Assembly (NCBI GenBank): GCA_964490895.1
Contig: CAZBEI010000065.1
Location: forward strand, 1,192-65,191
From: an uncultured Bdellovibrio sp.
GTDB lineage: Bacteria > Bdellovibrionota > UBA1018
Length of the DNA: 64,000 nt
Direction: 5' to 3'
The number at the start of each line of letters is the position of its first letter. The stretch's first letter is position 1. Below the pieces are notes generated by a model. The model saw only the letters and a program-made list of their open reading frames with translations. It was not told where the DNA came from and did not search any database. Positions 16,620 through 46,674 of this stretch are shown in pieces. The position numbers and the translations under genes are program-made.

Positions 16620-16738
16620 ACTTATATGTGCAAATATTTTTCAAGTCTCTTAATTATGGCGGGACATTTTGCCGCAAAATTTGTTTTTTTGTCTCATCAT
16701 GATTTTAAAAAACTCTTTTACTGCTTAAATAATTACAT

Positions 16739-16754
16739 GGCACTGATTATGCAT
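16739..16754 (+). promoter_or_regulatory. Sigma-54 promoter-like motif TGGCAC-N5-ATGCA upstream of the PLP-decarboxylase gene
   Basis: Near-consensus -24/-12. Lies inside a ~170-bp block duplicated from the uspA upstream region. Confidence 0.5.
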
Positions 16755-16821
16755 GTTAATCTTAAAAATAGGGGGCGAACATAACAAATTCTTTGGTACT
16801 TCATTCATTTGAAGCAAAAAA

Positions 16822-18546
16822 ATGACATCAAAGTGTAATACAAAAGACATTGCACTCAAGGGATTTTTCTTGGGCCCACAAGCTGAAAATGGCCCTTGGG
16901 TGTTAGAATTTATTCAAAGAGTTTTTGAGCGTTGGTTTAAGTGGAGAAGATCTCTTTATCCTGCAGATGGGAAAGGGATATCAAAATCAGATCAAAACAC
17001 CTCTGACTTTTTAGAAAGAAATCAGAATTTCAAGCTGCAGCTGGAGCGCCTCCTTTTACGTTTTGAAAACGAATTGCCAAAATTTTCTCCTCGGTACATG
17101 GGTCATATGTTTTCTGAAATTTCTCTCCCCGCACTGTTTGGACATATTGTGACCTTACTTCACAATCCCAATAATCTTTCTGGAGAATCTTCTCGAGTTG
17201 GGACTCAACTCGAAAACGAAGCCATCGGAATGTTAGCCCAAATGGTTGGTTATTCGGGAGCATGCAAAGGTCATTTTACTTCTGGGGGAACCCTTGCAAA
17301 CTTTGAAGCCATCATTCGCTCTCGAGCTCGTATTTTTTCTTGGCTTGAGCAGGGAGCCCTTGTTAAGCAAAACAACCTAAAAGAATTTGATCTTTTTTCT
17401 GCTTCACACATGGGTTGGGAATGTTTTGATCGATATCCTAAAACATTCGATGGACTCCATCTCTCTGAAAGTAATCCCTGGGAGCTTGCAAAAAAAATCG
17501 GATCTATTTTTCAGACTCCTTTTAGTGGCGGGGTCTTGCTCGTTCCAGAGAATAAACATTATTCGTGGAAAAAAGGAGTGTCTATTTTAGGACTAGGCGA
17601 TGAGGCTTTTTGGCCAATTTCATTAAACTCAGAAGGAAAACTTTGCACCCAGAGTCTCAATCAAAGAATCCATCAGGCAAGAAAAGAAAATCGGCCTATT
17701 TTTATGGTTGTCTCTGTCGCTGGAACTACGGAGCTTGGAGAAATTGACCCTGTTTCAGAAGTTCAGGAAATTTTAAATCATTGGAAAACAAACCATGGAG
17801 TTCATATTTGGCATCATGTGGATGCTGCTTATGGTGGATTTTTTTGCACACTCAAAAACCAGAACAAAAACCTCGCGGCACTTTCACAAGTAGACTCCAT
17901 TACGTTAGACCCACATAAATTAGGATATGTTCCGTTTTCATCGGGAGCTTTCTTAGTCAAAGAAAGGAGAAATTATTACATCAAGTCTTACGAAACTCCT
18001 TATCTCCAGTTTAATGAAAATGAAGACCCAGGTCCATTTACAATCGAAGGTTCTAGATCCGCAGCAGGAGCGGTGGCCACTTGGTTGACTGGGAAAACAA
18101 TTGGATTTGATGAAAATGGCTATGGACGAATTTTAGGTCGCACTTTGGACATTAAGCAAAATTTAGAAAAATTACTTCAAAAATCAAATTTGCCCATTCA
18201 AATCGCACCCCACACAGATACAAATATTCTTTGCTTTTGCGTGGTGGCCGCTCAAGGAGAACTCCTTTCGAAAACAAATGATAAAACCTTACACATCTAT
18301 GAGGCTCTTTCTGCAAAGGCAAGAGGCCCATTTATAGTCTCAAAAACAAAGCTTTATTTTAAGTCCTACAGACAGTACCTGGAGTCTTTTATTGGCTCAT
18401 GGCATGGAAAGATCGATCAGGACTCCCTTGTTTTAATCCGAATGTGCTTAATGAATCCCTTTTTTGATTCTGTAGAAATGGACGTCCAGTTTTCTCGAGA
18501 ATTTGTAGAGTGTATACGAAATTTGACTAAATATGAGGTAGGATAA
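16822..18546 (+). CDS. Pyridoxal-phosphate-dependent decarboxylase (group II, fold type I)
   Basis: 574 aa. Contains SGGTLANFEAI and DPHKLGYVP, the PLP-lysine block of group II decarboxylases. Confidence 0.7.
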   Translation: MTSKCNTKDIALKGFFLGPQAENGPWVLEFIQRVFERWFKWRRSLYPADGKGISKSDQNTSDFLERNQNFKLQLERLLLRFENELPKFSPRYMGHMFSEISLPALFGHIVTLLHNPNNLSGESSRVGTQLENEAIGMLAQMVGYSGACKGHFTSGGTLANFEAIIRSRARIFSWLEQGALVKQNNLKEFDLFSASHMGWECFDRYPKTFDGLHLSESNPWELAKKIGSIFQTPFSGGVLLVPENKHYSWKKGVSILGLGDEAFWPISLNSEGKLCTQSLNQRIHQARKENRPIFMVVSVAGTTELGEIDPVSEVQEILNHWKTNHGVHIWHHVDAAYGGFFCTLKNQNKNLAALSQVDSITLDPHKLGYVPFSSGAFLVKERRNYYIKSYETPYLQFNENEDPGPFTIEGSRSAAGAVATWLTGKTIGFDENGYGRILGRTLDIKQNLEKLLQKSNLPIQIAPHTDTNILCFCVVAAQGELLSKTNDKTLHIYEALSAKARGPFIVSKTKLYFKSYRQYLESFIGSWHGKIDQDSLVLIRMCLMNPFFDSVEMDVQFSREFVECIRNLTKYEVG

Positions 18547-25067: not shown

Positions 25068-26158
25068 TAGTCACTCAGTTCTACAGTTTCGGCGTGCGGG
25101 GTTTTCTTGAGAGTGTTTCGCGCATCAATCATGACCGCCACCTCATCAGTTCTCTGTATTTCTCTGGCTCTTTCGATTGCTTTTCGTTGTGGACCATGTT
25201 GAATACCTTGAGGATGAAAGGTGATCATCCCCTCCTTAATGCCCGCCCGACTGAAAAACTGGCCGCTGTGATAAAAAATCACTTCATCAAAGTCGATGTT
25301 GAGATGATAAAACGGCACTTTCATCGCTTGAGGATCCCCATTTTCAAGGGGCCGAGGAAGAAACGTGCAGATCACAAAATTGTTTGCAACAAATGTCGTG
25401 TGAGCAGAGGGTGGAAGGTGGTAACGGTCTGCAGATACAGGTCTAATGTCTCGAACATTAAGTTGCCATACTGATAATGTGCCTTTCCAACCTACTGCAT
25501 TGAGCGGATGAAAGGGATATAAAACGCGCGTGATCTCTCCGCAGTGTTGAATTCTGAGTTCATACTTTCCATTTGATTTATGCTCCATTTTTTCTGGCTC
25601 TGGTGTTGGAACACGAATCACTGCTGGATCAAATAGAGCGTGCTGTCCCAGCATCCCTTTTTCTGGAAAACAAACTTCGCTATAGGCTTCTATCAGTAGG
25701 GAGTGGGTTTCTTCCCGAGGATCAAATCGATAAACTGTACCTCTAGGAATAACAAGGTAGTCCCCAGGTTCGTAGACAAGAGGACCAAAGTCTGTTTCAA
25801 TTCGACCTTTGCCTGCATGGATGAAAAAAATTTCATCAGCGTCAGCATTTCTAAAGAAATACTGCATCTGGTTTTTTAGTCGGAAAAAAGAAATGCGAAC
25901 ATCGTCATTGTAGAGATAGCTTTGTCTGGCTTCAAGGTAATCTTGAGAAATATCCGTCACAGATCGAGCAAGATCGTAGGCTTGAGGCTTGAGGGGGCCT
26001 TCAATTTCAAGCCACTCAACAAGGGGTCGAGTACGGTAAAAGTGGGCGTACCTCCCTGAAAAACCATTTCTGGCATACTCCTCTTCGCTGGTTCCCTCTG
26101 GTATGCCCACATGAGCTTGATGAGCCACCTTCCCTTTGATGTGGGGGATTTGCATTAG
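25046..26158 (-). CDS. hmgA: Homogentisate 1,2-dioxygenase
   Basis: Cupin-fold HGO blocks (FFRNADADEIFFIHAGKG, FHPQGIQHGP). Start placed at MQIPHIKG with RBS GGAAAGAGGA. The longer track ORF (to 26290) would overlap the divergent LysR gene. Confidence 0.75.
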   Translation of the reverse strand, partial: LMQIPHIKGKVAHQAHVGIPEGTSEEEYARNGFSGRYAHFYRTRPLVEWLEIEGPLKPQAYDLARSVTDISQDYLEARQSYLYNDDVRISFFRLKNQMQYFFRNADADEIFFIHAGKGRIETDFGPLVYEPGDYLVIPRGTVYRFDPREETHSLLIEAYSEVCFPEKGMLGQHALFDPAVIRVPTPEPEKMEHKSNGKYELRIQHCGEITRVLYPFHPLNAVGWKGTLSVWQLNVRDIRPVSADRYHLPPSAHTTFVANNFVICTFLPRPLENGDPQAMKVPFYHLNIDFDEVIFYHSGQFFSRAGIKEGMITFHPQGIQHGPQRKAIERAREIQRTDEVAVMIDARNTLKKTPHAETVELSDYWKSWQK

Positions 26159-26261
26159 AATCCTCTTTCCTTTGGAAACAAGTATAGAAAATTTTCTGTA
26201 TATTAAAAGTATAGAAAACAGTGTAAGACTGTAAAAAAAACTCACAAAGAGGAAACTACCC

Positions 26262-27179
26262 GTGCATATCACTTTGGAAGAAGCCCGCACTTTGGATGCT
26301 GTTGTTCAGTTCGGAAGTTTTTCGAAAGCAGCACAAAATCTTCGCAAGAGTCATTCTGCTATCATCTATTCGCTGAAATCCTTAGAAACACAAACGGGTT
26401 TGCGCATTCTCGACAGAACGCAGTATCGAACCACGCTCACGCCCACAGGGAAACGCGTGTGGGAGCAGTGTAAAAAACTTTTGTCTTCTGAGCAAGATTT
26501 TACACACCTTTGCCGGAATCTTGGCTCTGGATGGGAGCCCTACCTAAAAATTGTGGTCGACGGACTCATTCCATTCGATTCCATTTTGCAGGCGCTCGAA
26601 AAACTAAGCCAACAGAAAGTTCCCACCAAAATCATGCTCTATGAGGAGTTTCTAGGTGGCGTGGAAAACAGTTTTATAGAAAATAGTGCGGATGTTATGA
26701 TCTCGGTGATTCCTCCAGAAAAAACTGTGCTTGAACCCATAAAACTTTGCCCGATCAGTAGCTACTTGGTCGTGAACAAGGAGCACTTCTTGGCTAAAAC
26801 ACGCAAGCGCCTGACGATTAGCCAGCTGCAAGAGTATCCCTTTCTCACCGTACGAGGATCGGATACAAGACTCAATCTCACAACCTCTGCCTTCGAGGAA
26901 TCATCGGCTTATCACCTGAACAATTTTCAGTCGAAGAAAGCAGCCATTCTCAAAGGGCTAGGTTTTGGTTGGCTACCGGAGTATTTGATCCATAAGGAAC
27001 TTGCAAAGAAAGAGCTTAAAATTGTTTACTGGGAGAAAAGCAGCGCGCACACTTACTTTCCTCATATCTATTGTCGAGGAACAAAGCATTTAGGTAAGGC
27101 TGGCTTGTCGTTTCTAAATGCATTGCTTTCATTTCAGCAGGTACCGAACTGTGAAGAATGTGCTCTTAAAACAAAATAA
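26262..27179 (+). CDS. LysR-family transcriptional regulator (divergent from hmgA-hppD-phhA)
   Basis: N-terminal HTH (LDAVVQFGSFSKAAQNLRKSHSAIIYSLKSLE). GTG start with RBS AAGAGGA. Confidence 0.8.
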   Translation: MHITLEEARTLDAVVQFGSFSKAAQNLRKSHSAIIYSLKSLETQTGLRILDRTQYRTTLTPTGKRVWEQCKKLLSSEQDFTHLCRNLGSGWEPYLKIVVDGLIPFDSILQALEKLSQQKVPTKIMLYEEFLGGVENSFIENSADVMISVIPPEKTVLEPIKLCPISSYLVVNKEHFLAKTRKRLTISQLQEYPFLTVRGSDTRLNLTTSAFEESSAYHLNNFQSKKAAILKGLGFGWLPEYLIHKELAKKELKIVYWEKSSAHTYFPHIYCRGTKHLGKAGLSFLNALLSFQQVPNCEECALKTK

Positions 27180-27267
27180 AAAAGCAAGATTGTGACAAAA
27201 AGGTATAATTAGAGAATTATTGTCTCATTTTTTTTCCAACATTAGAAACTTTATGCTTAATCCCACC

Positions 27268-27283
27268 TGGCATATTATTTGCA
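27268..27283 (+). promoter_or_regulatory. Sigma-54 promoter-like motif TGGCAT-N5-TTGCA (inside repeated element copy A)
   Basis: Near-consensus -24/-12. A TTGTGACAA palindrome lies ~75 bp upstream (27189-27197). Confidence 0.5.
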
Positions 27284-27301
27284 TCAGCACTGTACTTAAA
27301 A

Positions 27302-28057
27302 ATGCAAAAAAAAGTGGCCTCTAAAATTTTTGTAGTCAGTGCTATTTTTTTCCTAAGCGCCAATGCGACTGCACTCGAACAAACTGTCACACAAGGCATC
27401 AAGTCACTGGATTGCCAGAAAGAAATTTTAAGTCAACTCTCTCAGTGGGGAACCAAAAATGAGTGGATGACTCTGAAGCGTCCATTTGAAGACGAAAATT
27501 CCTACTTGAGTCCCACTCACGAAATCGGCGTTTGGGTCAAAATTCAATTTCAAACCCCACATGCACTTACCGCTTATCGAATGAATACAGAGCAAACAGA
27601 AAAAATCAATTGGGACAAAAAATGCCAAGCAACTTCTCAAATTCATGACACAAAAGGGGCGGAAGAAAAAAAAGACCCGGATTTATTGAGTGACAGTGAC
27701 TTAAAAGTCTTGATCAAAGATAATCCTTCTGGAATTTTATTTGTTTGGACCCCTCACACCCCTTGCTCGATCAAAGGGCTGAGAAATATCCAAATGGCTG
27801 CAAAAACACTCGGAGTTAAACTTTTTCCACTTTTACACCCCGCCTCCAACAGAAAGAGGGCTTGGCAAATGATCAGAGAGCTGCAACTTCCAGTCGATCA
27901 GTTGAGAGAAGTGGCGTCTTTAGAGCTTATTTTGAGAGGACTCATCAATCATGCTCCATCGATGATTGTGTTTTCGAAGGGAGAAATTAAAACTCCGATC
28001 TTGCGAGGCCCACACAGTTCTCTTAGATACCTCAACTTTGTAAAAGAAACCCTATGA
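27302..28057 (+). CDS. Secreted hypothetical protein
   Basis: Signal peptide; no recognised domain. Starts with MQKK, shared with the duplicated element. Confidence 0.45.
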   Translation: MQKKVASKIFVVSAIFFLSANATALEQTVTQGIKSLDCQKEILSQLSQWGTKNEWMTLKRPFEDENSYLSPTHEIGVWVKIQFQTPHALTAYRMNTEQTEKINWDKKCQATSQIHDTKGAEEKKDPDLLSDSDLKVLIKDNPSGILFVWTPHTPCSIKGLRNIQMAAKTLGVKLFPLLHPASNRKRAWQMIRELQLPVDQLREVASLELILRGLINHAPSMIVFSKGEIKTPILRGPHSSLRYLNFVKETL

Positions 28058-28067
28058 GGACAGGAAC

Positions 28068-29510
28068 TTGACAATGAAAAATATTCTCTCATGCTTGATA
28101 GTAGGGTTATTTTTTCTAAAACCCTCTCTAGCATCTTTGCCAAGCTATTGTTCTTTGCCTTCAGTGTATACAAAAATTTTACATACTTTTCCACGAGACG
28201 GTAAATTTTTAGACAATATTGCTTGGCTTTCAAATCCTGTCCCCAATTCTGTAGGACTTCCCTATCTCATTAGTTTTAGTCAGTTCATGGAAGATGGCAA
28301 AGACAAAAACTATATTCTCAATTTAGCCTCTGGAAAAACAGTCACTATTCCGGGTCAAGGAGATCCTGTGGTCACTCCAGACGGAAAATTTTTGACTATT
28401 CCAGGAGCTCACTCTGGAGAAAGCCAACTCCTTATTTTTTTAACTAAAACTGTTTTGAGGACTTTATTAAAAAAAGAGGCCGGCATTAATAGTCTCGAAA
28501 AAATAAAGCCCCTTTTTGTAGATCCAAAAGTCGAGGGGTATTGCCAGTCCTTTGGAGTATTGCCAAGCAAAAAAGGCACAATCCGATACAGACTCCTACA
28601 CACAGAAGGAGGCGGGCCCTTTCAGCTCACGGAGTACGAAGTTCATGAAAAAAACGGAAAATTTGAATTTAAAAATCTCGGGGCCATGCAGGTCTGTAGC
28701 AACATGCCGAATTCAGTCCACGACAATGGTACCGCGATTCTCTCAAAAGATGGACGCTATGTCTCTCTCTATGACTCTCAAGCACAGTCTACAAAGATTT
28801 TTGAACTCGAAGTAGCACAGGGAAAATGCTCTTGCAAAGAAGCCGTGGACTTCGGGTTTCCAACAGGAAGAGTGGATTTTAGCTACGATGGGAAAAAAAT
28901 TACTTTTCATGTCAATTTCTTAGGTATTGATTATGCAGACAATTATGTTTTAAAAGTCCCAGCATCTAAAATAAAAGACGTTTTTGTGGCCGAGCTTGAT
29001 TATAAAAATGGAAAAATAACCGGCATCAAAAAAATGGCGCGCTTGACAGCTTCTCAAAAAATGGGCGAAGGCTCTTATTTTCCGACTTTTTTGCCCAATG
29101 GAAAAATCTTTTATGTCTATCAAGACAACAGTGACCAACAGGACCGAAAATATCGACTTGAAGTCGTAGACTCTCGAAGTGCTAAGTATGAGGAAAATTT
29201 ATTTTCAAAACTCGACTCAGAAAAAGAGCAGGCTCGGTTTTTATCCAAAGTAGCATTGGGAAGACTTTGGTCCAAAGCCTGCGAACAAAAAATACTCACC
29301 CCCATTCAGTCAGCTCTGTACGCCATGAGTTTAGATACAAAATCCTGTCAATCTGTTGTGCGAGGTTCTTGGTCAAAATATAAATCTCAGATTTTAGTTG
29401 AGTTAACAGCTAACCGGAATGAAACGAGCTCAAGACTTAAAAAAATCAAGGACTCTGTTTTTAGACGTAAGATTTTTCAAGAGACACTCTTGGCGGCTTG
29501 TAGGCAATGA
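28068..29510 (+). CDS. Secreted protein with TolB/WD40-like beta-propeller repeats
   Basis: Signal peptide. Repeated DG-hydrophobic blades (TPDGKFLTIPG, SKDGRYVSLYD, SYDGKKITFHV, LPNGKIFYVYQD). Confidence 0.5.
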   Translation: MTMKNILSCLIVGLFFLKPSLASLPSYCSLPSVYTKILHTFPRDGKFLDNIAWLSNPVPNSVGLPYLISFSQFMEDGKDKNYILNLASGKTVTIPGQGDPVVTPDGKFLTIPGAHSGESQLLIFLTKTVLRTLLKKEAGINSLEKIKPLFVDPKVEGYCQSFGVLPSKKGTIRYRLLHTEGGGPFQLTEYEVHEKNGKFEFKNLGAMQVCSNMPNSVHDNGTAILSKDGRYVSLYDSQAQSTKIFELEVAQGKCSCKEAVDFGFPTGRVDFSYDGKKITFHVNFLGIDYADNYVLKVPASKIKDVFVAELDYKNGKITGIKKMARLTASQKMGEGSYFPTFLPNGKIFYVYQDNSDQQDRKYRLEVVDSRSAKYEENLFSKLDSEKEQARFLSKVALGRLWSKACEQKILTPIQSALYAMSLDTKSCQSVVRGSWSKYKSQILVELTANRNETSSRLKKIKDSVFRRKIFQETLLAACRQ

Positions 29511-29624
29511 GTGTGCTCAAAACACTATCCATATAAAAAGCAAGATTGTGACAAAAAAGCATTTTTTTGAGAATTATTGTCCCGTTTTTTTAAAACGTTA
29601 GAAACTTTAATGCTTAACATTGCC

Positions 29625-29640
29625 TGGCCTATTACTTGCA
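29625..29640 (+). promoter_or_regulatory. Sigma-54 promoter-like motif TGGCCT-N5-TTGCA (inside repeated element copy B) upstream of the Mo-enzyme operon
   Basis: Near-consensus -24/-12, 17 bp upstream of the ATG at 29657. The TTGTGACAA palindrome lies ~75 bp upstream (29544-29552). Confidence 0.5.
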
Positions 29641-29656
29641 CCAATAAAGACTACAA

Positions 29657-30466
29657 ATGCAAAAAAGAGGGGCTGAGAGCCAAGAAATTGACTTCGACTG
29701 TGTAGATTTTCATCGCCGATGGGAAAGAGCACGTATTTCTGCTCTTAAAAAAGCATTAGATTTTATCCCACAGGCTCTAGATACGGAAAAAGAGTTTCAA
29801 CTTCTCACACTGGTAAGACCAGAATCTGAAAACCTTGTGTTAAAGCTTGTGTTTGACCATAGTTTTCAACTTGGAAAAAGTTTATCCCTGTTTTTGAAAC
29901 GCCCCATCACACTGAAAGAAATCAAAAAAATCATAACCTCATCAAACCAATCTTGTCACCAGGGAGTTTGGCAAGATAAAGGCTTTGCTTTTGTATTAGA
30001 ACGAGAGGGATGTGATTCACAAAAGAAAACAGGAAAGTTTTACTGCCAGTACTCTAGGGAAGCTATGGATGGTTTGACTATGGGGGCGTGCAAAGACGAG
30101 GGGTATGCACGCCACAAAAGCGTAGGGCATGGAGATGAAAACTGTGTTGATGTTTTCTACAGTGAAAATGCGAGATCCAATCAGTTTGGAGGCATTGCAA
30201 AAGAAATATCTGAAAAACTAGAGTTTCTGCAAGAAGAGTTTGAAAAAATGAACTTGAACCTCGTTTTTGATGGAATTCGAGAAGGTACGTTATTTTACCA
30301 ACTTACCTCTAAAAATAGCTCTCTGTGTGGAAGTTCTGAAGACTTATTTCACCGTACCATTCAAGAAAGAATTAAAAAAGAATTCCCACTCCTTATCGTT
30401 CAAAATAGAACACCAAAATCTGTATTGGCAAAAAACAAAAATCACGAGGTGTATCCCCATGCCTAA
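29657..30466 (+). CDS. Hypothetical Cys/His-rich cytoplasmic protein translationally coupled to the molybdoenzyme alpha subunit
   Basis: 269 aa, no signal peptide. Its stop overlaps the alpha start (ATGCCTAA). Start codon uncertain. Confidence 0.4.
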   Translation: MQKRGAESQEIDFDCVDFHRRWERARISALKKALDFIPQALDTEKEFQLLTLVRPESENLVLKLVFDHSFQLGKSLSLFLKRPITLKEIKKIITSSNQSCHQGVWQDKGFAFVLEREGCDSQKKTGKFYCQYSREAMDGLTMGACKDEGYARHKSVGHGDENCVDVFYSENARSNQFGGIAKEISEKLEFLQEEFEKMNLNLVFDGIREGTLFYQLTSKNSSLCGSSEDLFHRTIQERIKKEFPLLIVQNRTPKSVLAKNKNHEVYPHA

Positions 30467-33400
30467 CGCAATTAAAAGAAGAGATTTTCTAAAAGGAATG
30501 GCTTATGTGGGCTCTTGGGGAGTGGCTTCGTCATGGATGCTCTCCCATAAACTCATGGCTGCTCCCATTCGTTACTTTAAACCCACCCACATCGAAAATC
30601 CTCTCGCTTTTTATCCGAATCGAGACTGGGAAAAAGTCTATCGTAATATTTTTGAACCAGACTCCTCTTTTGTTTTTTTATGCGCCCCCAATGACACCCA
30701 CAACTGCCTCCTAAAAGCTTATGTAAAAAATGGAGTCATTATCCGAATTGGACCCAGTTATGGTTATGGAAAAGCAACGGACCTCTATGGCAATCAGGCT
30801 TCTCATCGGTGGGATCCGAGAATTTGTCAAAAGGGGCTCGCTCTTGTTCGCAGAATATATGGAGACCGTAGAGTAAAAGCTCCCATGGTGAGGCGAGGGT
30901 TTAAGCAGTGGGTAGAAGACGGATTTCCAAGAGATCCATTGACTGGAAAACCAGATCCTAAATATTTCGAGCGCGGAAAAGACAAGTGGTTAAGGATCGA
31001 CTGGGAGGGAGCCTATGATTTGTCAGCTCGTACGATTGAGAATATCAGCAAAACTTATTCTGGAGAAAGTGGAGCAAAATTGCTTAAAGCACAAGGATAT
31101 GACCCCAGCATGATTGAGGCAACAGAAGGTGCGGGGACTCAGACTATTAAGCTTCGGGGTGGGATGGCATTCTTGGGTGCAACACGGATTTTTGGGCTTT
31201 ATCGATTTGCCAATATGCTCGCACTCATGGATGCAAAACAGCGTGGAGTTTCGCCTGATCAAGCCATCGGTGCAAGAGGTTGGGACAGTTATAGCTGGCA
31301 CACGGATCTCCCTCCTGGGCATCCCATGGTTACAGGGGCACAGACCAATGACTTTGATCTTTTTTCTACAGAATATTCAAAATTAATCATTGCCTGGGGA
31401 ATGAATTGGATCACCACTAAAATGCCAGACTCCCATTGGCTAACAGAGGCGCGGTTGAAGGGAGCAAAGACTGTTGCTGTAACGGTAGAATACAGTGCTA
31501 CGGGATCAAAGTGTGACGATGTCATTATTATCCGTCCTGGAACAGATCCTGCATTTGCCCTGGGAGTTGCGCAAGTTATTATTTCTAAAAAATTGTATGA
31601 CGAAGACTTTGTGCAAAAAAATACGGATTTACCTTTTTTAATTCGCTTAGACACGCTCCAACCTCTCCGCCCAGAAGAAGTGTTTGCAAACTATAAAGCC
31701 ACTCCTATCGAAACCATGAGCTTTATCAAGAAAGGCGAAAAAACATTACCAGGGAATTTACAAAAAAATCAATTTGCAAATGAGAACATGCAAAAAGATT
31801 TTAGTCCGTACGTTATTTTTGATAAAAAAATAAAAAAATTAGTCCCGGTAACACGAGACCAATGGGGACAGACATTCTCTCAAACCGAAATGAAGCCAGA
31901 CCTAAGAGCCCATCGAAAAATAAAACTCATTAACGGCAATGAAGTCGAAGTCAGAACGGTTTTCCATTTGACAGAGGAATATCTCAATAAAAACTTTACA
32001 CCCAAACTCACCGCTCTTGTCACAGGAACCCCAGAAAAAACCATCGTCAATCTTGCACTGGATATTGCAAAAAATAAGGAAAAAACTCTTTTTGCCTGCG
32101 GAATGGGCCCCAATCAGTTTTTTAACTCAGATCTAAAAGACAGGGCTATTTTTTTAGTGGCTGCTCTGACTCGAAATGTTGGCTTTCCGGGTGGAAACGT
32201 GGGGAGCTATGCCGGAAATTATAGAGCGGCACTTTTTGGAGGGATACCACAATTTGCAACAGAAGATCCCTTTCACCTCCAACTTGAAAAAGGAGGCAAA
32301 ATTACAGTAAAAAAATATCTCCATTATGAGTCACTCCATTATTTTAACTATGGAGACAGACCCTTAAGACTTGGCAACAAACTTTTTACAGGACATGGCC
32401 ACTTGCCCACTCCTACAAAAATGATGTGGTTAAATAACTCTAACTCAGTGATCGGTAACATTAAATGGCATTTCGATGTCGTCAATAATACTCTTCCAAA
32501 GCTAGAGTTTATTGCTTACTCAGATTGGTGGTGGACTGGATCCTGCGAGTACTCAGACATTGTATATGGTGTAGATAGTTGGGCTGAGTTCAAGGTTCCA
32601 GACATGTGTGGCTCTTGCACGAACCCTTTTGTTCAGATTTATCCGAGAACTCCCGTTCCAAGAATTTTTAATACCAAAAGTGATATTGAAGTGATTGCTG
32701 GTGTATCCAAACGATTGGGCGAGATTTTGAACGAACCTCGCATGAAAGACATGTGGAAGTTTGTTTCCGATGGTGACGTCGACGAATATCTGCAGAGAGT
32801 GATTGATCATTCGTTTACGCTAAAAGGATATGACTTTAAAACTCTAGAAAAAAATGCCAAAGAAGGGATTCCAGCTTTACTCAATACAAGGACTTACCCG
32901 AGAGTTTCCTCCTTTGAGCAAGCAAAAAACGAACAACCTTGGCACACAAAATCTGGTCGGCTAGAGTTTTATCGATTCGAATCGGACTTCATTGATAGCG
33001 GAGAAAACATGGTTGTTTACCGAGAGCCCATTGACTCCACTCATTATGAACCTAACGTGATTGTAGCTCATCCTCATACAGCCATTCGGCCAAAAACTCC
33101 AAAAGATTATGGACTCGATCCAAAGGATCTTTCGGTGGAGGCAAGACAGGTCAGAAATGTTCTGAAAACGCCAGAAGAGTTGATTCGATCTCAACATCCG
33201 CTGAAATTAAAATTATACTCTCACGTTTACCACACTCCTAAGTACCGACATGGAGCTCATTCGACCCCTGTCGATACTGATTATACTTCGGTTTGGTTTG
33301 GTCCATTTGGGGACGTGTATCGACACGACAAGAGAATGCCTGCCAACTCTGAAGGCTACGTTGACATCAATCCGCTCGATGCAAAGGCTTTAGGCGTAGA

Positions 33401-33941
33401 AGATGGAGATTATGTCTATATTGACGCTGACCCAGAAGATCGGCCTTTTAGGGGTTGGAAAGAAAATACACTGGAGTACAAAGTCGCACGGCTGCTTTTG
33501 AGAGCTCGTTATTACCCGGGCACACCCCGTGGAATCGCGCGCACTTGGCACAACATGTATGGTGCGACGTTGGGCAGCGTAAAAGCTCACGAAACGAGGC
33601 CAGACGGTTTGGCAAAAAATACTGAAACCAACTATCAGTCTATGTACCGTTATGGGAGCCATCAAAGTGCCACACGAGCATGGCTCAGGCCCACTCTCAT
33701 GACAGAATCCCTTGTCCACAAGGGCATGTTTGGCCAAGGAATTGAAAAGGGTTTTGCTCCTGATATTCATTGCCCAGTGGGTGCTCCCAGAGAAGCTTTT
33801 GTGAAAATCACTAAAGCAGAATTAGGGGGTATGGATGGAAAGGGAATGTGGAGGCCCGCCTCACTTGGCTTCAGACCTACCTACGAAAACAAAGCAATGA
33901 AAGAGTATCTAAAGGGTCATTTCTTAAAGAAAAAATCTTAG
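30459..33941 (+). CDS. Type II DMSO-reductase-family molybdoenzyme alpha subunit, periplasmic nitrate reductase / nitrite oxidoreductase-like (NarG/NxrA-type), Tat-exported
   Basis: Start at MPNAIKRRDFLKG (twin-arginine motif) with RBS GAGGTG; the track ORF begins upstream at 30267. About 1160 aa. The first Fe-S (FS0) motif C-x3-D-x3-C aligns to NarG H-x3-C-x3-C next to YVKNG. The Mo-ligand Asp region TTKMPDSHWLTEARLKGAKTVAV parallels NarG. Confidence 0.85.
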   Translation: MPNAIKRRDFLKGMAYVGSWGVASSWMLSHKLMAAPIRYFKPTHIENPLAFYPNRDWEKVYRNIFEPDSSFVFLCAPNDTHNCLLKAYVKNGVIIRIGPSYGYGKATDLYGNQASHRWDPRICQKGLALVRRIYGDRRVKAPMVRRGFKQWVEDGFPRDPLTGKPDPKYFERGKDKWLRIDWEGAYDLSARTIENISKTYSGESGAKLLKAQGYDPSMIEATEGAGTQTIKLRGGMAFLGATRIFGLYRFANMLALMDAKQRGVSPDQAIGARGWDSYSWHTDLPPGHPMVTGAQTNDFDLFSTEYSKLIIAWGMNWITTKMPDSHWLTEARLKGAKTVAVTVEYSATGSKCDDVIIIRPGTDPAFALGVAQVIISKKLYDEDFVQKNTDLPFLIRLDTLQPLRPEEVFANYKATPIETMSFIKKGEKTLPGNLQKNQFANENMQKDFSPYVIFDKKIKKLVPVTRDQWGQTFSQTEMKPDLRAHRKIKLINGNEVEVRTVFHLTEEYLNKNFTPKLTALVTGTPEKTIVNLALDIAKNKEKTLFACGMGPNQFFNSDLKDRAIFLVAALTRNVGFPGGNVGSYAGNYRAALFGGIPQFATEDPFHLQLEKGGKITVKKYLHYESLHYFNYGDRPLRLGNKLFTGHGHLPTPTKMMWLNNSNSVIGNIKWHFDVVNNTLPKLEFIAYSDWWWTGSCEYSDIVYGVDSWAEFKVPDMCGSCTNPFVQIYPRTPVPRIFNTKSDIEVIAGVSKRLGEILNEPRMKDMWKFVSDGDVDEYLQRVIDHSFTLKGYDFKTLEKNAKEGIPALLNTRTYPRVSSFEQAKNEQPWHTKSGRLEFYRFESDFIDSGENMVVYREPIDSTHYEPNVIVAHPHTAIRPKTPKDYGLDPKDLSVEARQVRNVLKTPEELIRSQHPLKLKLYSHVYHTPKYRHGAHSTPVDTDYTSVWFGPFGDVYRHDKRMPANSEGYVDINPLDAKALGVEDGDYVYIDADPEDRPFRGWKENTLEYKVARLLLRARYYPGTPRGIARTWHNMYGATLGSVKAHETRPDGLAKNTETNYQSMYRYGSHQSATRAWLRPTLMTESLVHKGMFGQGIEKGFAPDIHCPVGAPREAFVKITKAELGGMDGKGMWRPASLGFRPTYENKAMKEYLKGHFLKKKS

Positions 33942-33949
33942 GAGAGTTT

Positions 33950-35080
33950 ATGTCAAAAGTAAAAAATTGGCACTTGGGACGTGAGATGGAATATGTTTAC
34001 GAAGAACATCGCCCCAAAAAACAATGGTCCATAGTATTCGATTTGAATAAATGCATTGCCTGCCAAACTTGTACACTGGCTTGTAAAACCACCTGGACGA
34101 GTGGAAAAGGCCAGGAATACATGTTTTGGAATAATGTCGAAACAAAGCCCTATGGGAGCTATCCACTGGCATGGGATGTGCGAGTTTTAGAAAAACTAGG
34201 TCAACAAGAGTGGGGGAAAAAAGAACCTTATTACGGGAAGACGATTTTTGAGGGAGCCCTGCCGACCGAAAGGGCCGTACACTTTCATCCCAAAGACGAA
34301 GACTGGATGTATCCCAATCAGGGCGAAGATGATTGCTTAGGAAATGTAACAAGGGGTGACTCTATTACTCTTCCGCACGACAAGTGGTTTTTTTATTTAC
34401 CTAGAACTTGTGCTCATTGTACTTATCCCGCTTGTCTCGCTGCATGCCCCAGAAAAGCAATTTATAAAAGAGACGAAGACGGAATTGTTTTGATCGATCA
34501 ATCCAGGTGCAAAGGCTATGGAGAATGCGTTCGAGCCTGCCCATACAAAAAATCAATGTACAACCCTTATACAAGAGTGAGCGAAAAATGTATCGGTTGC
34601 TATCCCGCAGTTGAGAAGGGCTATCAACCCATGTGTGTGCAAAACTGTATTGGGAAAATTAGAATCATGGGGTTTGTAAACCCTCCCTGGAAAGTGAGAG
34701 AGAATAATCCAATTGATTATTTGATTCACAAAAAAGAATTAGCCCTGCCTTACTATCCACAACTGGGATTAGAGCCTAATATCTATTACATCCCACCCAT
34801 CCATGCTGATAAAACATACCTCACTCAAATGTTTGGACCCAATGTCGAACACTCAATAGAACAATATAAAAAAATAAAGAACGACATTACAACACAGGGT
34901 CTTTTGGTTTTGATGGGTAGTACGGATCGAATTATTCATAGTTTTGAAGTTAAAAACAATACGGCCTATGGATATGACGAAAAGGGAGACGAAATTGTCC
35001 ATGTTCCTATCACAGAACCACTTTATGAGAGAGAAAGCTTTGATGCCAAACGTCAGGTTGTCAGGAACAATACGCCCTAA
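33950..35080 (+). CDS. Molybdoenzyme beta subunit (four Fe-S clusters; NarH/NxrB-like)
   Basis: Start at MSKVKNW with RBS GGAGAG. Cys clusters CIACQTCTLAC, CAHCTYPACLAACP, CKGYGECVRACP, CIGCYP..C. Confidence 0.8.
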   Translation: MSKVKNWHLGREMEYVYEEHRPKKQWSIVFDLNKCIACQTCTLACKTTWTSGKGQEYMFWNNVETKPYGSYPLAWDVRVLEKLGQQEWGKKEPYYGKTIFEGALPTERAVHFHPKDEDWMYPNQGEDDCLGNVTRGDSITLPHDKWFFYLPRTCAHCTYPACLAACPRKAIYKRDEDGIVLIDQSRCKGYGECVRACPYKKSMYNPYTRVSEKCIGCYPAVEKGYQPMCVQNCIGKIRIMGFVNPPWKVRENNPIDYLIHKKELALPYYPQLGLEPNIYYIPPIHADKTYLTQMFGPNVEHSIEQYKKIKNDITTQGLLVLMGSTDRIIHSFEVKNNTAYGYDEKGDEIVHVPITEPLYERESFDAKRQVVRNNTP

Positions 35081-35093
35081 CTAAGGAGTAAAC

Positions 35094-35954
35094 ATGAAAA
35101 TAAAAAGAAACTTATTTTTACTTTTTTTTATATTAAATTTATGTCCCTCAATTGATGCAGCCGAACTTATTTCTAAGTTTGTGAAGGCAGACTTCTCCCA
35201 TTTTCCAATGGGCGATGACATCTGGAAGGGAGCACGCGAAGAAACAATTAAACTCATGGCTCAACCCATGGCCATCCCAAGACCCAAAGAAACAAACACA
35301 TCCGAAATTTATGTCAAAACCTTAAATGATGGAAAATGGATTGCCTTTCGAATCAGGTGGAAAGACACAGAGAAAAACGAAGCAGGTAGGTTGGGTCAGT
35401 TTTCGGATGCACTTGCTCTTGAGTTTCCAGTCAAAAGTAACCTTTCTCCACCTCCGATTTTCATGGGTGCCAAAGATAACCCTGTTCATGTTTTTCATTG
35501 GCGCGCTCAGTATCAGGCAGACAAAGAACGCGGAAAACCCACGATGAAGGATCTTTATCCCAATATGAATGTCGACATTTATCCTATGGAATTTCAGGAC
35601 CAAGGCTACCTCATGGGATTAACCGAAGAAAAAAGAGAAGTCTTCTCACATGGGATGGCAGCAGGAAATCCTCAGTCGTACAGAAAAATCCATGGTGTGG
35701 ATGAGATTTTTGCTGAAGGTTTTGGGAGTAGCTCCGTCATTGAAAACGTTGAGTCAATTGCACAGGGGGCTTGGAAAAATAATGAATGGGATCTCGTTTT
35801 GTCTAGATCGCTTAAGCGCGAAAACGGATCTATTTTAGAGTCTGGAAAAGGGAGCTTTGTAGGTTTTGCTGTTTGGCAGGGAGGCAAAGACGAAGTGGGA
35901 TCTAGAAAATCAGTCACCATGAATTGGACACCCCTTAAGATTCAAGCAGAATAG
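35094..35954 (+). CDS. Gamma subunit, EbdC/NxrC-like periplasmic haem-b protein (ethylbenzene-dehydrogenase gamma family)
   Basis: Signal peptide, 286 aa. Conserved FPMGDDIWKGA..W.A.Y pattern of type II gamma subunits. Gene order matches alpha-beta-gamma-delta. Confidence 0.7.
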   Translation: MKIKRNLFLLFFILNLCPSIDAAELISKFVKADFSHFPMGDDIWKGAREETIKLMAQPMAIPRPKETNTSEIYVKTLNDGKWIAFRIRWKDTEKNEAGRLGQFSDALALEFPVKSNLSPPPIFMGAKDNPVHVFHWRAQYQADKERGKPTMKDLYPNMNVDIYPMEFQDQGYLMGLTEEKREVFSHGMAAGNPQSYRKIHGVDEIFAEGFGSSSVIENVESIAQGAWKNNEWDLVLSRSLKRENGSILESGKGSFVGFAVWQGGKDEVGSRKSVTMNWTPLKIQAE

Positions 35955-35965
35955 GAGTACTTATT

Positions 35966-36649
35966 ATGGAAAATAATTTTGCAAATAAAGTCTCACAGTT
36001 TGTCTTGGCTTCACTTATTACGTCTTACCCAGACACAGCTTTTCCCGATCATCTGTCAAAAATATCTCAAACTGAGCTTGATTGTAGTGAACTCATGGCA
36101 ATGCTCCACTCCTATTGCGAAAGCCAAATCAAATTAGATAACCTCAGGTCTGATTATATTGACATTTTTGATCGAGGAAAAAATCTAAACCCTCTTTATG
36201 AAACAGAATATGAGAGAGAGCGAACACAAGTAAAAGCCACAACGCTTTCAGATATTGCTGGATTTTATAAGGCGTTTGGATTTGACTTCGATGGCACAAG
36301 CTATCCAGAAATGGTGGACCATGTGTCTGTTGAGCTTGAGTTTTATGCCTTGTTGCTCATGAAACAAGCTTATCTTGAAGAAAATAAAACGACAGAGGGT
36401 GTGTCCATAACATTAGATGCTAGGAAAAAATTTCTAAAAGATCACTTGGGTCGCTTTGTTGGTTCCATTGCTGAACGGCCAGGGGTCAAAGAAAACCATT
36501 TTTATTCTCGTGTTTTTGATTGGTGTAAAGATTTGATTCAAACAGAATGCCAAGAACTTGGGGTCAAAGTGATTCCAGCCCAGTGGTTTTCAGTATCACA
36601 AAAGCCGCAAGATTCTGGCGAAATGTGCTGCGGGGATCATAAAAATTGA
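35966..36649 (+). CDS. TorD/NarJ-family redox-enzyme maturation chaperone (delta subunit)
   Basis: 227 aa, all-helical. The DIFDRG..YETEYE..EL.FY..L pattern is typical of the NarJ/TorD family. Confidence 0.65.
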   Translation: MENNFANKVSQFVLASLITSYPDTAFPDHLSKISQTELDCSELMAMLHSYCESQIKLDNLRSDYIDIFDRGKNLNPLYETEYERERTQVKATTLSDIAGFYKAFGFDFDGTSYPEMVDHVSVELEFYALLLMKQAYLEENKTTEGVSITLDARKKFLKDHLGRFVGSIAERPGVKENHFYSRVFDWCKDLIQTECQELGVKVIPAQWFSVSQKPQDSGEMCCGDHKN

Positions 36650-37629
36650 CAAAATTACAAGATCCTTTTGATAGGAAATTTTCTTATCTCCGACTTTCTG
36701 TTACAGATGTCTGTAATTTTAGGTGCGTTTATTGCCTCCCCAAGGGCTATCAAAAACCAAAAAAATCTTTTACTCCTTTAACATTAGTTGAAATCAAAAA
36801 TCTCGTGCTCGCATTTTCTGAGCTAGGTATCACCAAAGTGAGGCTGACCGGTGGAGAGCCCACAACAAGACATGACATTGTCGAAATAGCTCGAGTGATT
36901 TCAGAAATCCAAGGAATAAAAAAAATCGCACTGACCACCAATGGTTATCGTTTAAGTGAACTCGTTCCCCACCTTAAAGCAACGGGTCTGTCCTCCCTCA
37001 ATGTCAGTGTGGACAGCTTAGATCCTGAAAATTTTTCTAGTATTACGGGCAAGCCCTTGCTTCATAAAGTTCTCGACGGGATAAGTCGCGCAATTCAAGT
37101 CGGAATAGCATCAGTAAAAATAAACGTAGTTTATTTGAAAAAAATAAATAGCGCAGAACTTGAGCGATTTTTAGACTGGGCCAAAGAAACCCCTGTCGCT
37201 ATTCGCTTTATTGAGCTCATGGAGACTGGAAAAAATAAAGTATTATTTCAATCCCATCACCTCTCATTAGGAGAAATTCAATTTTACCTTTTAAAGTCGG
37301 GCTGGAGTTTAATCCCAAAAGAAACTGACAGTGGGCCCGCCTGGGAGTACTGCCACCCAGAGTATAGGGGTCAAATTGGAGTCATTGCTCCCTACTCAAA
37401 AGATTTTTGCCAGTCTTGCAACCGGCTACGCATTTCTTCTCAAGGCGAACTCAAACTCTGTCTTTTTGGTGAAAAAAATTACTCTTTGCGCCACCTCCTC
37501 CAATCGCAAAAATATAAAGAAGAGCTCAAATCAACAATCCAACATTTGATCTATCAGAAACCCATTTCACATTTCTTACACGAGGGAAAATATGGAAACA
37601 CATGGAATCTATCCTCCATCGGAGGATAA
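36646..37629 (+). CDS. moaA: GTP 3',8-cyclase MoaA (radical SAM)
   Basis: CNFRCVYC radical-SAM motif and a C-terminal CQSCNRLR..G cluster. Confidence 0.85.
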   Translation: MTKLQDPFDRKFSYLRLSVTDVCNFRCVYCLPKGYQKPKKSFTPLTLVEIKNLVLAFSELGITKVRLTGGEPTTRHDIVEIARVISEIQGIKKIALTTNGYRLSELVPHLKATGLSSLNVSVDSLDPENFSSITGKPLLHKVLDGISRAIQVGIASVKINVVYLKKINSAELERFLDWAKETPVAIRFIELMETGKNKVLFQSHHLSLGEIQFYLLKSGWSLIPKETDSGPAWEYCHPEYRGQIGVIAPYSKDFCQSCNRLRISSQGELKLCLFGEKNYSLRHLLQSQKYKEELKSTIQHLIYQKPISHFLHEGKYGNTWNLSSIGG

Positions 37630-38602
37630 CTCTTCGCAAATGGTGGATGTTAGCTCAAAAGACATCACCTTACGCAAAGCGCGTGCAACAGGAAGAATTC
37701 AAGTTTCTCTAGAAATCATAGAAAAAATCAAATCAAACACAATTCCAAAGGGAGATGTTTTTAGAGTGGCAGAAGTCGCTGGCATTCTTGCTGCCAAAAA
37801 AACTCCAGAGATCATCCCCCTTTGCCATCCCATCCTTATTGAGTCTGTTCGAATCCATTGCGAAATAAAAACGCCACATGCGATAGAAGTGACCTCCGAA
37901 GTCATAGCCCAAGCCAAAACAGGTGTTGAAATGGAAGCTTTGGTGGCCGTGCAAGCGGCACTGCTGTGCATTTATGACATGACAAAGGGGCTTTATCCCT
38001 ACGCTACCATCGAAGACGTTCATGTTGTATCTAAAACGGGTGGAAAATCGGAACATTGGCCAAACCCTAAAAACAACACACAACAATTAGATATAAAAGT
38101 TGGGATCCTGACCGTGAGTGACCGTTGTTCAAAAGGCAAACAAGAAGACAAATCCGGAAAAACAATTGAGTGTTTTTTTACTGAAACAAACTCTACTCTC
38201 ATCGGGAGTCTCATCGTACCAGACGATGTGGGCAAAATTCAAAGTGCCATCAAAAATTTAGCATTTGAGGAAAAAGCAGACCTCATTATCACAACAGGTG
38301 GGACTGGACTCGGCCCTCGAGATCAAACTCCTTTAGCGCTACAGACGCTTTGGACAAAGCCCTTGCCAGGAGTTGGAGAACTCTTAAGGAGTAAAGGTTC
38401 GCTACACACTCCACTTTCTTGGCTGAGCCAAATGGAGGCTGGATTGATCGAAAATACCCTGGTGGTCTCCCTACCAGGCAGCCCAAAGGCTGTAAAAGAG
38501 TCCCTAGATATTTTGAGCCCCTTACTGGTGCATATTTTTGACATGATTCGCGGAGAGAATCATGAAGGTAAAATGATTCGCGGAGAGAATCATGAAACTT
38601 AA
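37592..38602 (+). CDS. moaC: Bifunctional MoaC (cyclic pyranopterin monophosphate synthase) and MogA/MoaB-like molybdopterin adenylyltransferase fusion
   Basis: N-terminal half has MVDVSSKDITLRKARA..EIIPLCHP (MoaC). C-terminal half has GILTVSDR..IITTGGTGLGPRD (MogA/MoaB). Confidence 0.75.
   Translation: METHGIYPPSEDNSSQMVDVSSKDITLRKARATGRIQVSLEIIEKIKSNTIPKGDVFRVAEVAGILAAKKTPEIIPLCHPILIESVRIHCEIKTPHAIEVTSEVIAQAKTGVEMEALVAVQAALLCIYDMTKGLYPYATIEDVHVVSKTGGKSEHWPNPKNNTQQLDIKVGILTVSDRCSKGKQEDKSGKTIECFFTETNSTLIGSLIVPDDVGKIQSAIKNLAFEEKADLIITTGGTGLGPRDQTPLALQTLWTKPLPGVGELLRSKGSLHTPLSWLSQMEAGLIENTLVVSLPGSPKAVKESLDILSPLLVHIFDMIRGENHEGKMIRGENHET
38543..38602. repeat. 30-bp tandem duplication (atgattcgcggagagaatcatgaa + 6 nt) at the moaC-mogA / transporter junction
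   Basis: Two adjacent 30-bp units with 26/30 identity. Each carries GGAGAG-N4-ATG. The first gives the mini-ORF MKVK; the second is the transporter start. Confidence 0.8.
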
Positions 38603-39683
38603 ATGGCTATCCAATCAATTTCTTGGAGCCTTTTCTGACGGAGCGATTTTGATTCCTATGATCGCTGTGCTCTCTGCAAAGTCTGGATATAATATTAAAA
38701 CTCTACTCTTCAGTGCAGGGATTATTTATTGTGTGAGTGGAGCTTATTTTAAAATCCCAATGGCTGTGCAACCTCTAAAATCACTGGTGATCACGGCTCT
38801 TGCAATTCAAGCAAGTCTCACCGAAATTAGGCTAGTGGGAGCATTGATTGGACTACTTTGCCTGTTTTTGACTCTCTTTGATGCCAATGCACTTGCTAAA
38901 AAAGTACCCATTGAGCTGATACACGGGCTCCAAGTAGCATTGGGTGTTTTACTTATTTTACAAGGGTTTAGAGCTATCCACACAGAAGTGCTTGTTGTTT
39001 TAGTTGTTTTAGTTATTATTTACTATTTCTTCGAATTTCCGATTTTAGGCGTATTGGCTTGCCTTGGAATTTTATTCTCTTTCACACGCACACTACCCAT
39101 CCCTGGCAGCACAATCAATATAAACGGAAGTGAGTTTAGATTTTCAGTTATTATTTCACTTTTACTTCCGCAAATAATTCTGACACTCAGCAATTCAGTC
39201 ATTGGAACGTATCACGTTTCACAGTACTATTTTCCAAAAGGGGCAAGCAAAGTAACTCCCAAACGACTTTTAACTTCGATTGGGATTGGAAACATTTTGA
39301 CAGCCTTATTTGCGGGTCTCCCCTTTTGTCATGGCTCTGGTGGAATTACGGCACATTACTTGGGTGGAGCCAGACATTACATTTCAAACTTTATTGTAGG
39401 CTTTTTTCTAATTGGAGTATTCATTTTTCTCCAATTTTCTAAAAATTATTTTACCTTTCACTATCCTCCCATTCTTTTGTCAAGCTTGCTCATATCAGTA
39501 GGAGTTTTTCATATCAAATTAGCAAAAGAGACTTGGATTAAAAAAGAAAATGGCAAACCAACCCTCATGCTGATGGCTCTTACTGCACTGACAACACAAA
39601 ACTTACTCTACGCACTGGGGATTGGAATATTTCTAGAACTCATCAGTAAACGGATCTATAAATTGACAGGAGCACGCTCATGA
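38592..39683 (+). CDS. Polytopic membrane transporter embedded in the Moco cluster (possible molybdate/sulfate-family permease)
   Basis: 363 aa, about 10 TM helices. Position between mogA and moeA suggests molybdate uptake; family not securely identified. Confidence 0.5.
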   Translation: MKLKWLSNQFLGAFSDGAILIPMIAVLSAKSGYNIKTLLFSAGIIYCVSGAYFKIPMAVQPLKSLVITALAIQASLTEIRLVGALIGLLCLFLTLFDANALAKKVPIELIHGLQVALGVLLILQGFRAIHTEVLVVLVVLVIIYYFFEFPILGVLACLGILFSFTRTLPIPGSTININGSEFRFSVIISLLLPQIILTLSNSVIGTYHVSQYYFPKGASKVTPKRLLTSIGIGNILTALFAGLPFCHGSGGITAHYLGGARHYISNFIVGFFLIGVFIFLQFSKNYFTFHYPPILLSSLLISVGVFHIKLAKETWIKKENGKPTLMLMALTALTTQNLLYALGIGIFLELISKRIYKLTGARS

Positions 39684-40939: not shown

Positions 40940-40959
40940 ATTAAGCCAAGGAAAATAAA

Positions 40960-41226: not shown

Positions 41227-41273
41227 GTATTTTGTTTAAATATAAAATAAAAATAACAAAAAAGCCGATAGAA

Positions 41274-46568: not shown

Positions 46569-46674
46569 AATTTAGGACTCCTTCTATCATCAGCTTAACC
46601 CCTATACCCAAGTATAGGGTCAATAGAAATTATTTTCTTGGCCTTGTACCTATATATAGGGTTAGAATATAAGC

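Follow-up and report, generated by a model that had tools for sequence, protein, structure and literature searches.

A duplicated sigma-54-type promoter cassette in front of an exported-protein operon and an NXR-type molybdoenzyme operon of an uncultured Bdellovibrio sp.

A stretch of 64,000 nucleotides from an uncultured Bdellovibrio sp. (GenBank assembly GCA_964490895.1, contig CAZBEI010000065.1), hereafter called the window, carries two copies of a repeat of ~165 bp each, which lie 2.36 kb apart, are ~79-84% identical and each stand directly in front of an operon. On balance, we favour the explanation that a cassette of enhancer, promoter and start codon was duplicated, with the p251-p478 operon as its probable source, and that the copy would have wired an operon for an NXR-type molybdoenzyme into an existing sigma-54 regulon. 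The copied unit would comprise a dyad enhancer (GTGACA-N23/24-TGTCYC), a T-rich stretch, a conserved block, a sigma-54 promoter and a start codon without a Shine-Dalgarno (SD) sequence. Copy A would drive the two-gene exported-protein operon p251-p478, and copy B would drive p269, an NXR/Nar-type molybdoenzyme exported by twin-arginine translocation (Tat), its chaperone and molybdenum-cofactor genes. A phosphorylated NtrC-type activator would bind the dyad, assemble there and contact the sigma-54 RNA polymerase held at the -24/-12 element, with the ~40 bp in between looped out. Transcription would begin 6-8 nt before the ATG and yield near-leaderless mRNAs. Copy B would thereby have taken the place of a native control of the FNR type and of the first p269 codons.

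Homology of the two copies

Local alignment and blastn placed the full extent of homology at 27156-27318 (copy A) and 29509-29673 (copy B), both on the plus strand. A sequence-only reading of this DNA had described a duplication of ~130 bp with blocks at 27181-27313 and 29536-29668. Every block listed there was found at these coordinates, and the duplication as such was borne out, but its true extent is ~30 nt larger. Alignment of the two blocks with MAFFT and Smith-Waterman gave a single continuous homologous stretch with 133 identities in 173 alignment columns and a local score of 131, compared with 18.5±2.8 (maximum 34) for 1000 shuffles of copy B. By blastn, copies A and B matched over 142 nt (78.9% identity, E 1e-26). 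The longest identical runs measured 23, 13, 12 and 11 nt, and identical runs include the GC-containing sequences AAGCAAGATTGTGACAAAAA, GAGAATTATTGTC, TTAGAAACTTT/ATGCTTAA and CCTGGC. Score, E-value and these runs show that the similarity exceeds low-complexity A/T runs, the possibility that the sequence-only reading had itself held against a duplication.

The left end of copy A consists of the last ~8 codons of a LysR-family gene, and that of copy B of the stop codon of p478. On the right, the repeat reaches codon 6 of both open reading frames (MQKKVA in p251, MQKRGA in p269), so that the duplication carries the start codon, as had been proposed. The flanking genes are unrelated: BLASTP detected no homology between p251 and p269 or between the LysR protein and p478 (best E 0.8-5), which agrees with the assignment of the two copies to different operons. 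All 18 core positions of the cassette (G.GACA, TGTC.C, TGGC and TTGC) are identical in A and B despite ~20% divergence, for which the chance is about 0.02. The clustering of identities into blocks was borderline (P about 0.05).

Further copies were sought in the window, in GTDB representative genomes, in JGI metagenomes and among plasmids. No third copy was found in the window, where the next best score on either strand was 33, and blastn of the cassette against plasmids gave no match. The 19-mer AAGCAAGATTGTGACAAAA matched GTDB representatives eight times, none of these being the cassette, and the pattern TTGTGACAA-N12-19-GAATTATTGTC gave 23 matches in JGI metagenomes, all with background alignment scores of 22-30.

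Promoter elements, the wide dyad and a second cassette pair

Sigma-54 promoters are characterized by GG and GC 10 nt apart (TGGCAC-N5-TTGCW), with transcription starting ~12 nt past the GC. Both copies contain such an element with a GG/GC spacing of exactly 10 nt, TGGCAT-ATTAT-TTGCA at 27268-27283 in copy A and TGGCCT-ATTAC-TTGCA at 29625-29640 in copy B (both plus strand). The -24/-12 core, which the sequence-only reading had listed among the shared blocks, is intact in both copies, while the immediately surrounding sequence has diverged. The motif TGGC-N7-TTGCW occurs at four sites in the window compared with 1.28 expected, and the looser TGGC-N8-TGCW at ten compared with 3.6; six of these ten sites are intergenic and directed toward gene starts.

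The -24/-12 elements end 16-18 nt upstream of the ATG. Given where the -12 GC normally lies, transcription is predicted to start near 27294 in copy A and near 29651 in copy B, and the predicted leaders would measure only 8 and 6 nt. No SD sequence precedes the ATG of p251 or p269, whereas 20 of 33 surveyed window genes have one; the start codon sits in the A-rich context AAATGCAAAAAA. For p269, no ATG, GTG or TTG lies in frame between the upstream stop and the ATG at 29657, and the next in-frame start, a GTG at codon 61, would remove residues conserved in its homologue. The ATG at 29657 is therefore the only usable start.

The perfect 9-bp palindrome TTGTGACAA at 27190-27198 and 29546-29554 had been read as an upstream activator sequence. 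An upstream symmetric site is kept in both copies, as this reading required, but the palindrome amounts to no more than the left arm of a dyad of 35/36 bp, G-N-GACA-N23/24-TGTC-N-C, whose right arm lies within the block gagaattattgtc of the same reading. The dyad spans 27192-27226 in copy A (GTGACA-N23-TGTCTC) and 29548-29583 in copy B (GTGACA-N24-TGTCCC). In both copies it is located 41 nt upstream of TGGC and centred ~85 bp upstream of the predicted transcription start, and the spacer between its arms is the least conserved part of the alignment.

Exactly four strict dyads occur in the window, compared with 0.08±0.27 expected from 200 dinucleotide-preserving shuffles. The two others are dyad C at 10096-10131 (GGGACA-N24-TGTCCC) and dyad D at 16661-16695 (GGGACA-N23-TGTCTC). 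Dyad C is shared by divergent sigma-54-like motifs at 10055-10040 (minus strand) and 10185-10200 (plus strand), with a gap of 40 nt to the former; the gap to the latter is longer by about one helical turn (53 nt). Dyad D lies 42 nt before TGGCAC-N5-ATGCA (16738-16753). All four dyads thus precede sigma-54 motifs, five in total, at gaps of 41, 41, 42, 40 and 53 nt. An enhancer is expected to be a symmetric site ~70-150 bp upstream that recurs at promoters, and the dyad has these properties. With the motif taken from C and D alone, the chance that A/B would carry WTGTCYC at the right distance together with a spaced GACA is ~5e-6 by our own arithmetic. The literature yielded no usable result on a TGTC site of the PilR type.

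Dyads C and D belong to a second non-coding duplication (10087-10281 and 16652-16828; blastn 196 nt, 72% identity, E 1.5e-16) with the sigma-54 motifs TGGCAT-N5-GTGCA and TGGCAC-N5-ATGCA and the inverted repeat GGGACAT...ATGTCCC. At cassette C, the minus-strand promoter heads an operon for CBS, FMN_bind, ApbE and uncharacterised proteins (5170-10012), and the plus-strand side fronts an operon containing usp and an activator gene. Cassette D fronts a gene for a pyridoxal-phosphate-dependent decarboxylase (16822-18546) and keeps ~45 nt of usp coding sequence as 5′ untranslated region, in which the usp ATG has become ATA. Its right end coincides with the start codon of the recipient gene, as in the A/B duplication. 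Common ancestry of A/B with C/D was considered and rejected, as no significant alignment was obtained beyond the motifs (P 0.03-0.5 compared with shuffles). Since the two pairs otherwise lack significant similarity, the dyad is a shared site and does not merely reflect shared descent. The same dyad at the same distance before all five sigma-54 motifs suggests that these promoters (A, B, the divergent pair at ~10.1 kb and the 16.7 kb site) probably form one regulon.

A candidate for the dyad-binding protein is encoded at 11163-12599 (plus strand) in the operon behind cassette C. It is a response-regulator-type sigma-54 enhancer-binding protein with REC, AAA+ (Walker A, GSFTGA) and Fis-type helix-turn-helix (HTH_8) domains (Sigma54_activat E 6e-73), and the adjacent gene at 12586-13776 (minus strand) specifies a PAS histidine kinase. 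No rpoN gene was found among the open reading frames scanned. A complete sigma-54 activator with an adjacent kinase suggests that the organism uses sigma-54. As cassette C with the same dyad precedes its operon, the activator is the natural candidate binder, and together with the PAS kinase it provides the best regulator candidates.

Between the dyad and the -24 element, both copies contain the conserved block TTAGAAACTTTATGCTTAA (27242-27260 in A, 29598-29617 in B; plus strand), whose sequence TGCTTAA also occurs 9 nt before TGGC in cassette D. The IHF consensus WATCAANNNNTTR was absent from 27242-27260 on both strands when inspected by eye. Directly 3′ of the right dyad arm, the sequence of copy A reads T8 (27228-27235), and its counterpart in copy B is a T7A4 run (29585-29595; both plus strand). 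In cassettes C and D, too, the dyad is succeeded by comparable T/A runs. These runs may have a role in bending or in binding of an architectural protein.

Two of the eight GTDB matches to the 19-mer, both in unrelated genomes, carry a partner arm at the wide spacing (rough chance ~1e-3). One is located before msrP/msrQ-like genes of Ochrobactrum (contig L001, ~5660-5705, minus strand; TTGTGACAA-N20-TTGTCACA) and the other before a CoA-transferase gene in a metagenome-assembled genome (contig L005, 1376-1410; GTGACA-N23-TGTCTC). Neither is accompanied by a sigma-54 motif. Within the window, the sigma-54-like motif TGGCAAGGTTTATGCA is found at 14758-14773, 30 nt before a NirK-like multicopper gene with a strong SD sequence (14804-15829). 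The promoter of this gene lacks the wide dyad and shows a short GGGACT-AAA-TGTCAC ~72 nt upstream.

The two operons and the direction of copying

The LysR-family gene upstream of copy A (26262-27179) is divergent from homogentisate-pathway genes. Behind copy A, p251 (27302-28057, plus strand; signal peptide MQKKVASKIFVVSAIFFLSANA) is followed by p478 (28074-29510, plus strand; 478 aa), which also has a signal peptide. Neither protein matched a Pfam or NCBIfam family above threshold or gave a result in a PDB sequence search; for p478, a sub-threshold PD40 repeat in Pfam gives a weak hint of a beta-propeller. The first gene behind copy B, p269 (29657-30466, plus strand), encodes a Cys/His-rich protein for which Pfam, NCBIfam and PDB sequence searches gave no family match, and its AlphaFold model (predicted local distance difference test score 50.8) was too poor for use in a fold search. 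Five Cys residues are conserved with its only homologue, along with the motif RHxSVGHGDxxCVDV, and p269 is translationally coupled to the alpha subunit, whose ATG overlaps the p269 stop codon (ATGCCTAA). The p269 protein may act in maturation or in sensing and bind a metal or a cluster.

The genes that follow on the plus strand specify the NxrA/NarG-like molybdopterin alpha subunit (30459-33941; 1160 aa; Tat signal MPNAIKRRDFLK with KRRDFLK), a beta subunit of the type II dimethyl sulfoxide (DMSO) reductase family (open reading frame 33848-35080), a gamma heme-b subunit (EB_dh; 35094-35954), a NarJ-like delta chaperone (35966-36649) and molybdenum-cofactor genes (36646-42270), namely moaA, moaC/B, a molybdate transporter, moeA, moaE and mobA. 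The alpha subunit matched Kuenenia NxrA (7b04_B) with E 2.6e-274, and matches to NarG and PcrA were far weaker. The product previously annotated as a 'Mo-enzyme' is thus a molybdoenzyme, which can be specified further as a Tat-exported NXR/Nar-type enzyme of the type II DMSO-reductase family. The genes for the enzyme and the full cofactor set (30459-42270) appear to form a single transcription unit. This bacterium, with a GC content of 41%, also carries the NirK-like gene and a haem-copper cytochrome c oxidase (COX1/2/3 subunits).

The proteins encoded on the present contig all fall into singleton clusters. Comparison with relatives showed that the two operons are separate elsewhere. The one detectable homologue of p269, P0002 on contig L009 (38% identity in a pairwise alignment), likewise precedes an alpha subunit, which is 76% identical to the one described here. 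On L009, the p269-NXR operon occurs without p251 and p478 and is preceded by nnrS and a divergently oriented gene of the Crp/Fnr family. Its intergenic region contains TGATTTAGATCA, which we read as an FNR-like TGAT-N4-ATCA box. TGGC...TTGC was not detected in this region, and a motif scan of the whole locus found none. Contig L010 contains the p251-p478 pair (52% and 66% identity) followed by unrelated genes and no NXR operon; this contig ends inside the p251 homologue, upstream of which its promoter would lie. Nothing could be learned from more remote homologues of p478 (L011-L013), each of which occurs singly in an unrelated context. As the two operons are independent units in these relatives, at least one of them gained the cassette in the present lineage. 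This supports the earlier suggestion of a promoter capture, the more so as the NXR operon on L009 has the FNR-like box instead.

Most likely, copying went from A to B. In A the repeat takes in the 3′ end of the LysR coding sequence, whereas the matching stretch is non-coding in B, MQKKVA is integral to the signal peptide of p251, and the similarity of p269 to its homologue starts at residue 8, just past the six cassette-derived codons. These three observations point to A as the donor.

Among other repeats, two direct repeats of 216 bp with 94-97% identity (3885-4101 and 62847-63062) bracket ~59 kb that contain both cassette pairs. They represent 3′ fragments of tyrosine-recombinase genes with downstream sequence and may be island boundaries; ARAGORN found no tRNA in connection with them. 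The other long repeats of the window are paralogous coding sequences and not promoter duplications (mer-like metal-resistance genes, 1670-2030 and 46298-47081; CMD-family genes, 15877-16019 and 45416-45558).

Alternative explanations and comparison with known systems

Several observations weigh against a copied sigma-54 cassette. The dyad motif was defined post hoc, after the four sites had been seen, and these sites represent only two independent lineages, A/B and C/D. Its arms, at 23/24 nt, lie farther apart than those of classical activator sites. A leader of 6-8 nt is unusual for sigma-54 promoters: at the other four sigma-54 sites of the window, 30-68 nt separate the end of the -12 element from the start codon, and three of these four have an SD sequence. 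Because the block-wise conservation is only borderline, parts of the similarity between A and B may simply reflect a recent origin. No terminator-like site was found on the plus strand between 26900 and 29900 and hence none separates p478 from copy B, so that read-through from promoter A could suffice for the NXR operon. Finally, as far as this genome is concerned, the results on copies, rpoN and activators refer to the window.

The short leader would be avoided if both operons were transcribed from a sigma-70 promoter with GTGACA as -35, AATTAT as -10 and a ~75-nt unstructured leader, in which the sigma-54-like motif would be coincidental. GTGACA-17-AATTAT (27192-27220) and GTGACA-18-AATTAT (29548-29577) indeed give 9/12 matches in both copies. 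Matches of this quality are, however, common here (9 found compared with 4.9±2.2 expected in 3 kb), and at C and D the -10 position reads TTTTTT although the dyad and its distance to the -24 element are kept. We regard a sigma-70 promoter as unlikely also in view of the fixed register with the -24 element, which it leaves unexplained, and of the expectation of TGGC-N7-TTGCW within a given 130-nt stretch, which is about 0.001; even the 75-nt leader would lack an SD sequence. Slightly less probable still is that the symmetric site serves as operator of a different regulator, either the upstream LysR protein or a GntR/CRP-type protein that recognises TTGTGACAA, which would repress or activate both operons. 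That TTGTGACAA is a perfect palindrome, that the LysR gene ends 10 bp before it and that two unrelated genomes have GTGACA...TGTC(A/T)C dyads without a nearby sigma-54 motif would fit such an operator. The LysR protein has a more likely target in the divergent homogentisate-pathway genes, however, and it is not the 9-bp palindrome, absent from C and D, but the wide dyad that is present at all four sites in a fixed register with the sigma-54 motifs.

Copy B might also be a neutral remnant of a tandem duplication or gene conversion, the NXR operon being read through from A. The lack of a terminator-like site, the borderline block-wise conservation and the number of just two copies are in line with this. 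We nevertheless give it a similarly small chance, since the identity of all core positions (18/18) would be surprising for a neutral remnant, the start codon of p269 is the one that came with the cassette, and an independent second cassette duplication in the window (C/D) follows the same pattern. It is very improbable that the repeat is a small mobile element, such as a miniature inverted-repeat transposable element (MITE) or the end of an insertion sequence (IS), or a structured RNA such as a riboswitch or leader, even if a short non-coding repeat before genes might suggest the former and a molybdenum-cofactor riboswitch would fit the Mo-enzyme operon. Copies are lacking elsewhere in the window and in the GTDB, JGI and plasmid searches. 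A MITE- or IS-derived promoter was rejected, as there are no terminal inverted repeats, no target duplications and only two copies in 64 kb. A riboswitch or structured leader (e.g. the molybdenum-cofactor RNA motif) was rejected as well: an Rfam search of 26000-31000 at E<=1 gave no match save one noise match, the cassette RNA folds less stably than shuffled sequences (z-scores +0.9 to +1.6), and the consensus fold comprises 9 pairs at -5.1 kcal/mol.

If an enhancer-promoter-start-codon cassette was indeed copied from A to B, the locus offers an unusually readable natural regulatory rewiring, in which a name can be put to every functional part of what was copied and the likely donor is distinguishable from the likely recipient. 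The relative on L009 shows what the control of the recipient operon may have been before the copy arrived. For this uncultured bacterium, a concrete regulon can be predicted, in which the PAS kinase and the activator would control the usp-activator operon, the decarboxylase, the two exported proteins and the NXR-type enzyme together with its cofactor pathway. The predicted leaders of 6-8 nt also prompt one to ask how ribosomes translate sigma-54 transcripts that lack an SD sequence. More tentatively, and with less than even confidence, one might propose that sigma-54 'plug-in' cassettes composed of an enhancer, a promoter, an SD-less start and a few codons are a routine means by which this organism extends a single two-component regulon; one of the two independent duplications would have recruited an NXR-type nitrate/nitrite enzyme that is Crp/Fnr-controlled in relatives, with near-leaderless transcripts. 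To our knowledge, near-leaderless sigma-54 transcripts from such cassettes are a combination not normally described.

Classical NtrC-family systems such as glnAp2 combine a GG-N10-GC promoter with a symmetric activator site ~70-100 bp upstream. The present system resembles them in having a response-regulator activator with AAA+ and Fis-type helix-turn-helix domains whose own operon carries the same site. It differs in the arms of the dyad, which are 6 bp long and 23/24 nt apart whereas classical dyads are compact (~17 bp), and in the ~40 bp between site and -24 element, the predicted leader of 6-8 nt and the missing SD sequence. Promoter capture by duplication is reportedly exemplified by citT/rnk in E. 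coli. Such capture is also described from experimental evolution and after horizontal transfer (PMC6614815, PMC11111574), and a local duplication likewise places an existing promoter before a gene lacking suitable expression. Compared with what is described there, the present duplication is old and diverged (~80% identity) and seen in a natural genome only, and its mechanism (e.g. tandem duplication followed by deletion) is not recoverable.

Putative mobile promoters have been defined as at least 50 nt with at least 80% identity within -150..-51 between non-homologous flanking genes, and >4000 families, 68% of them with two members, were found in a survey (Matus-Garcia et al. 2012, PMC3488235). 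Duplication of a promoter before unrelated genes is therefore already known. In the -150..-51 region relative to the translation start, copies A and B share 73 nt with 83.6% identity (E 2e-18), and the genes on both sides are non-homologous; the pair falls under this definition of mobile promoters or promoter propagation (PMC3488235; Nijveen et al. 2012, PMC3575422). Here, however, the content is readable as an enhancer dyad, a sigma-54 promoter and a start codon, the copied sequence enters the coding region, and the same enhancer recurs 10-17 kb away in another cassette pair that is unrelated to A/B. In Nitrospira, nxrAB loci are associated with sigma-54-dependent regulators (PMC6606698), and both cases link an NXR-type molybdoenzyme locus to sigma-54-dependent regulation. 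There, regulator genes flank nxrAB, whereas here the link would be a copied promoter cassette with a candidate activator 17 kb away, and the closest homologous operon, on L009, seems to use Crp/Fnr. Set beside these systems, the A/B duplication is a clear but ordinary case of bacterial gene rewiring through promoter copying; what is specific to it is the readable content, the extension into coding sequence, the predicted near-leaderless transcripts and the two independent duplications with one enhancer.

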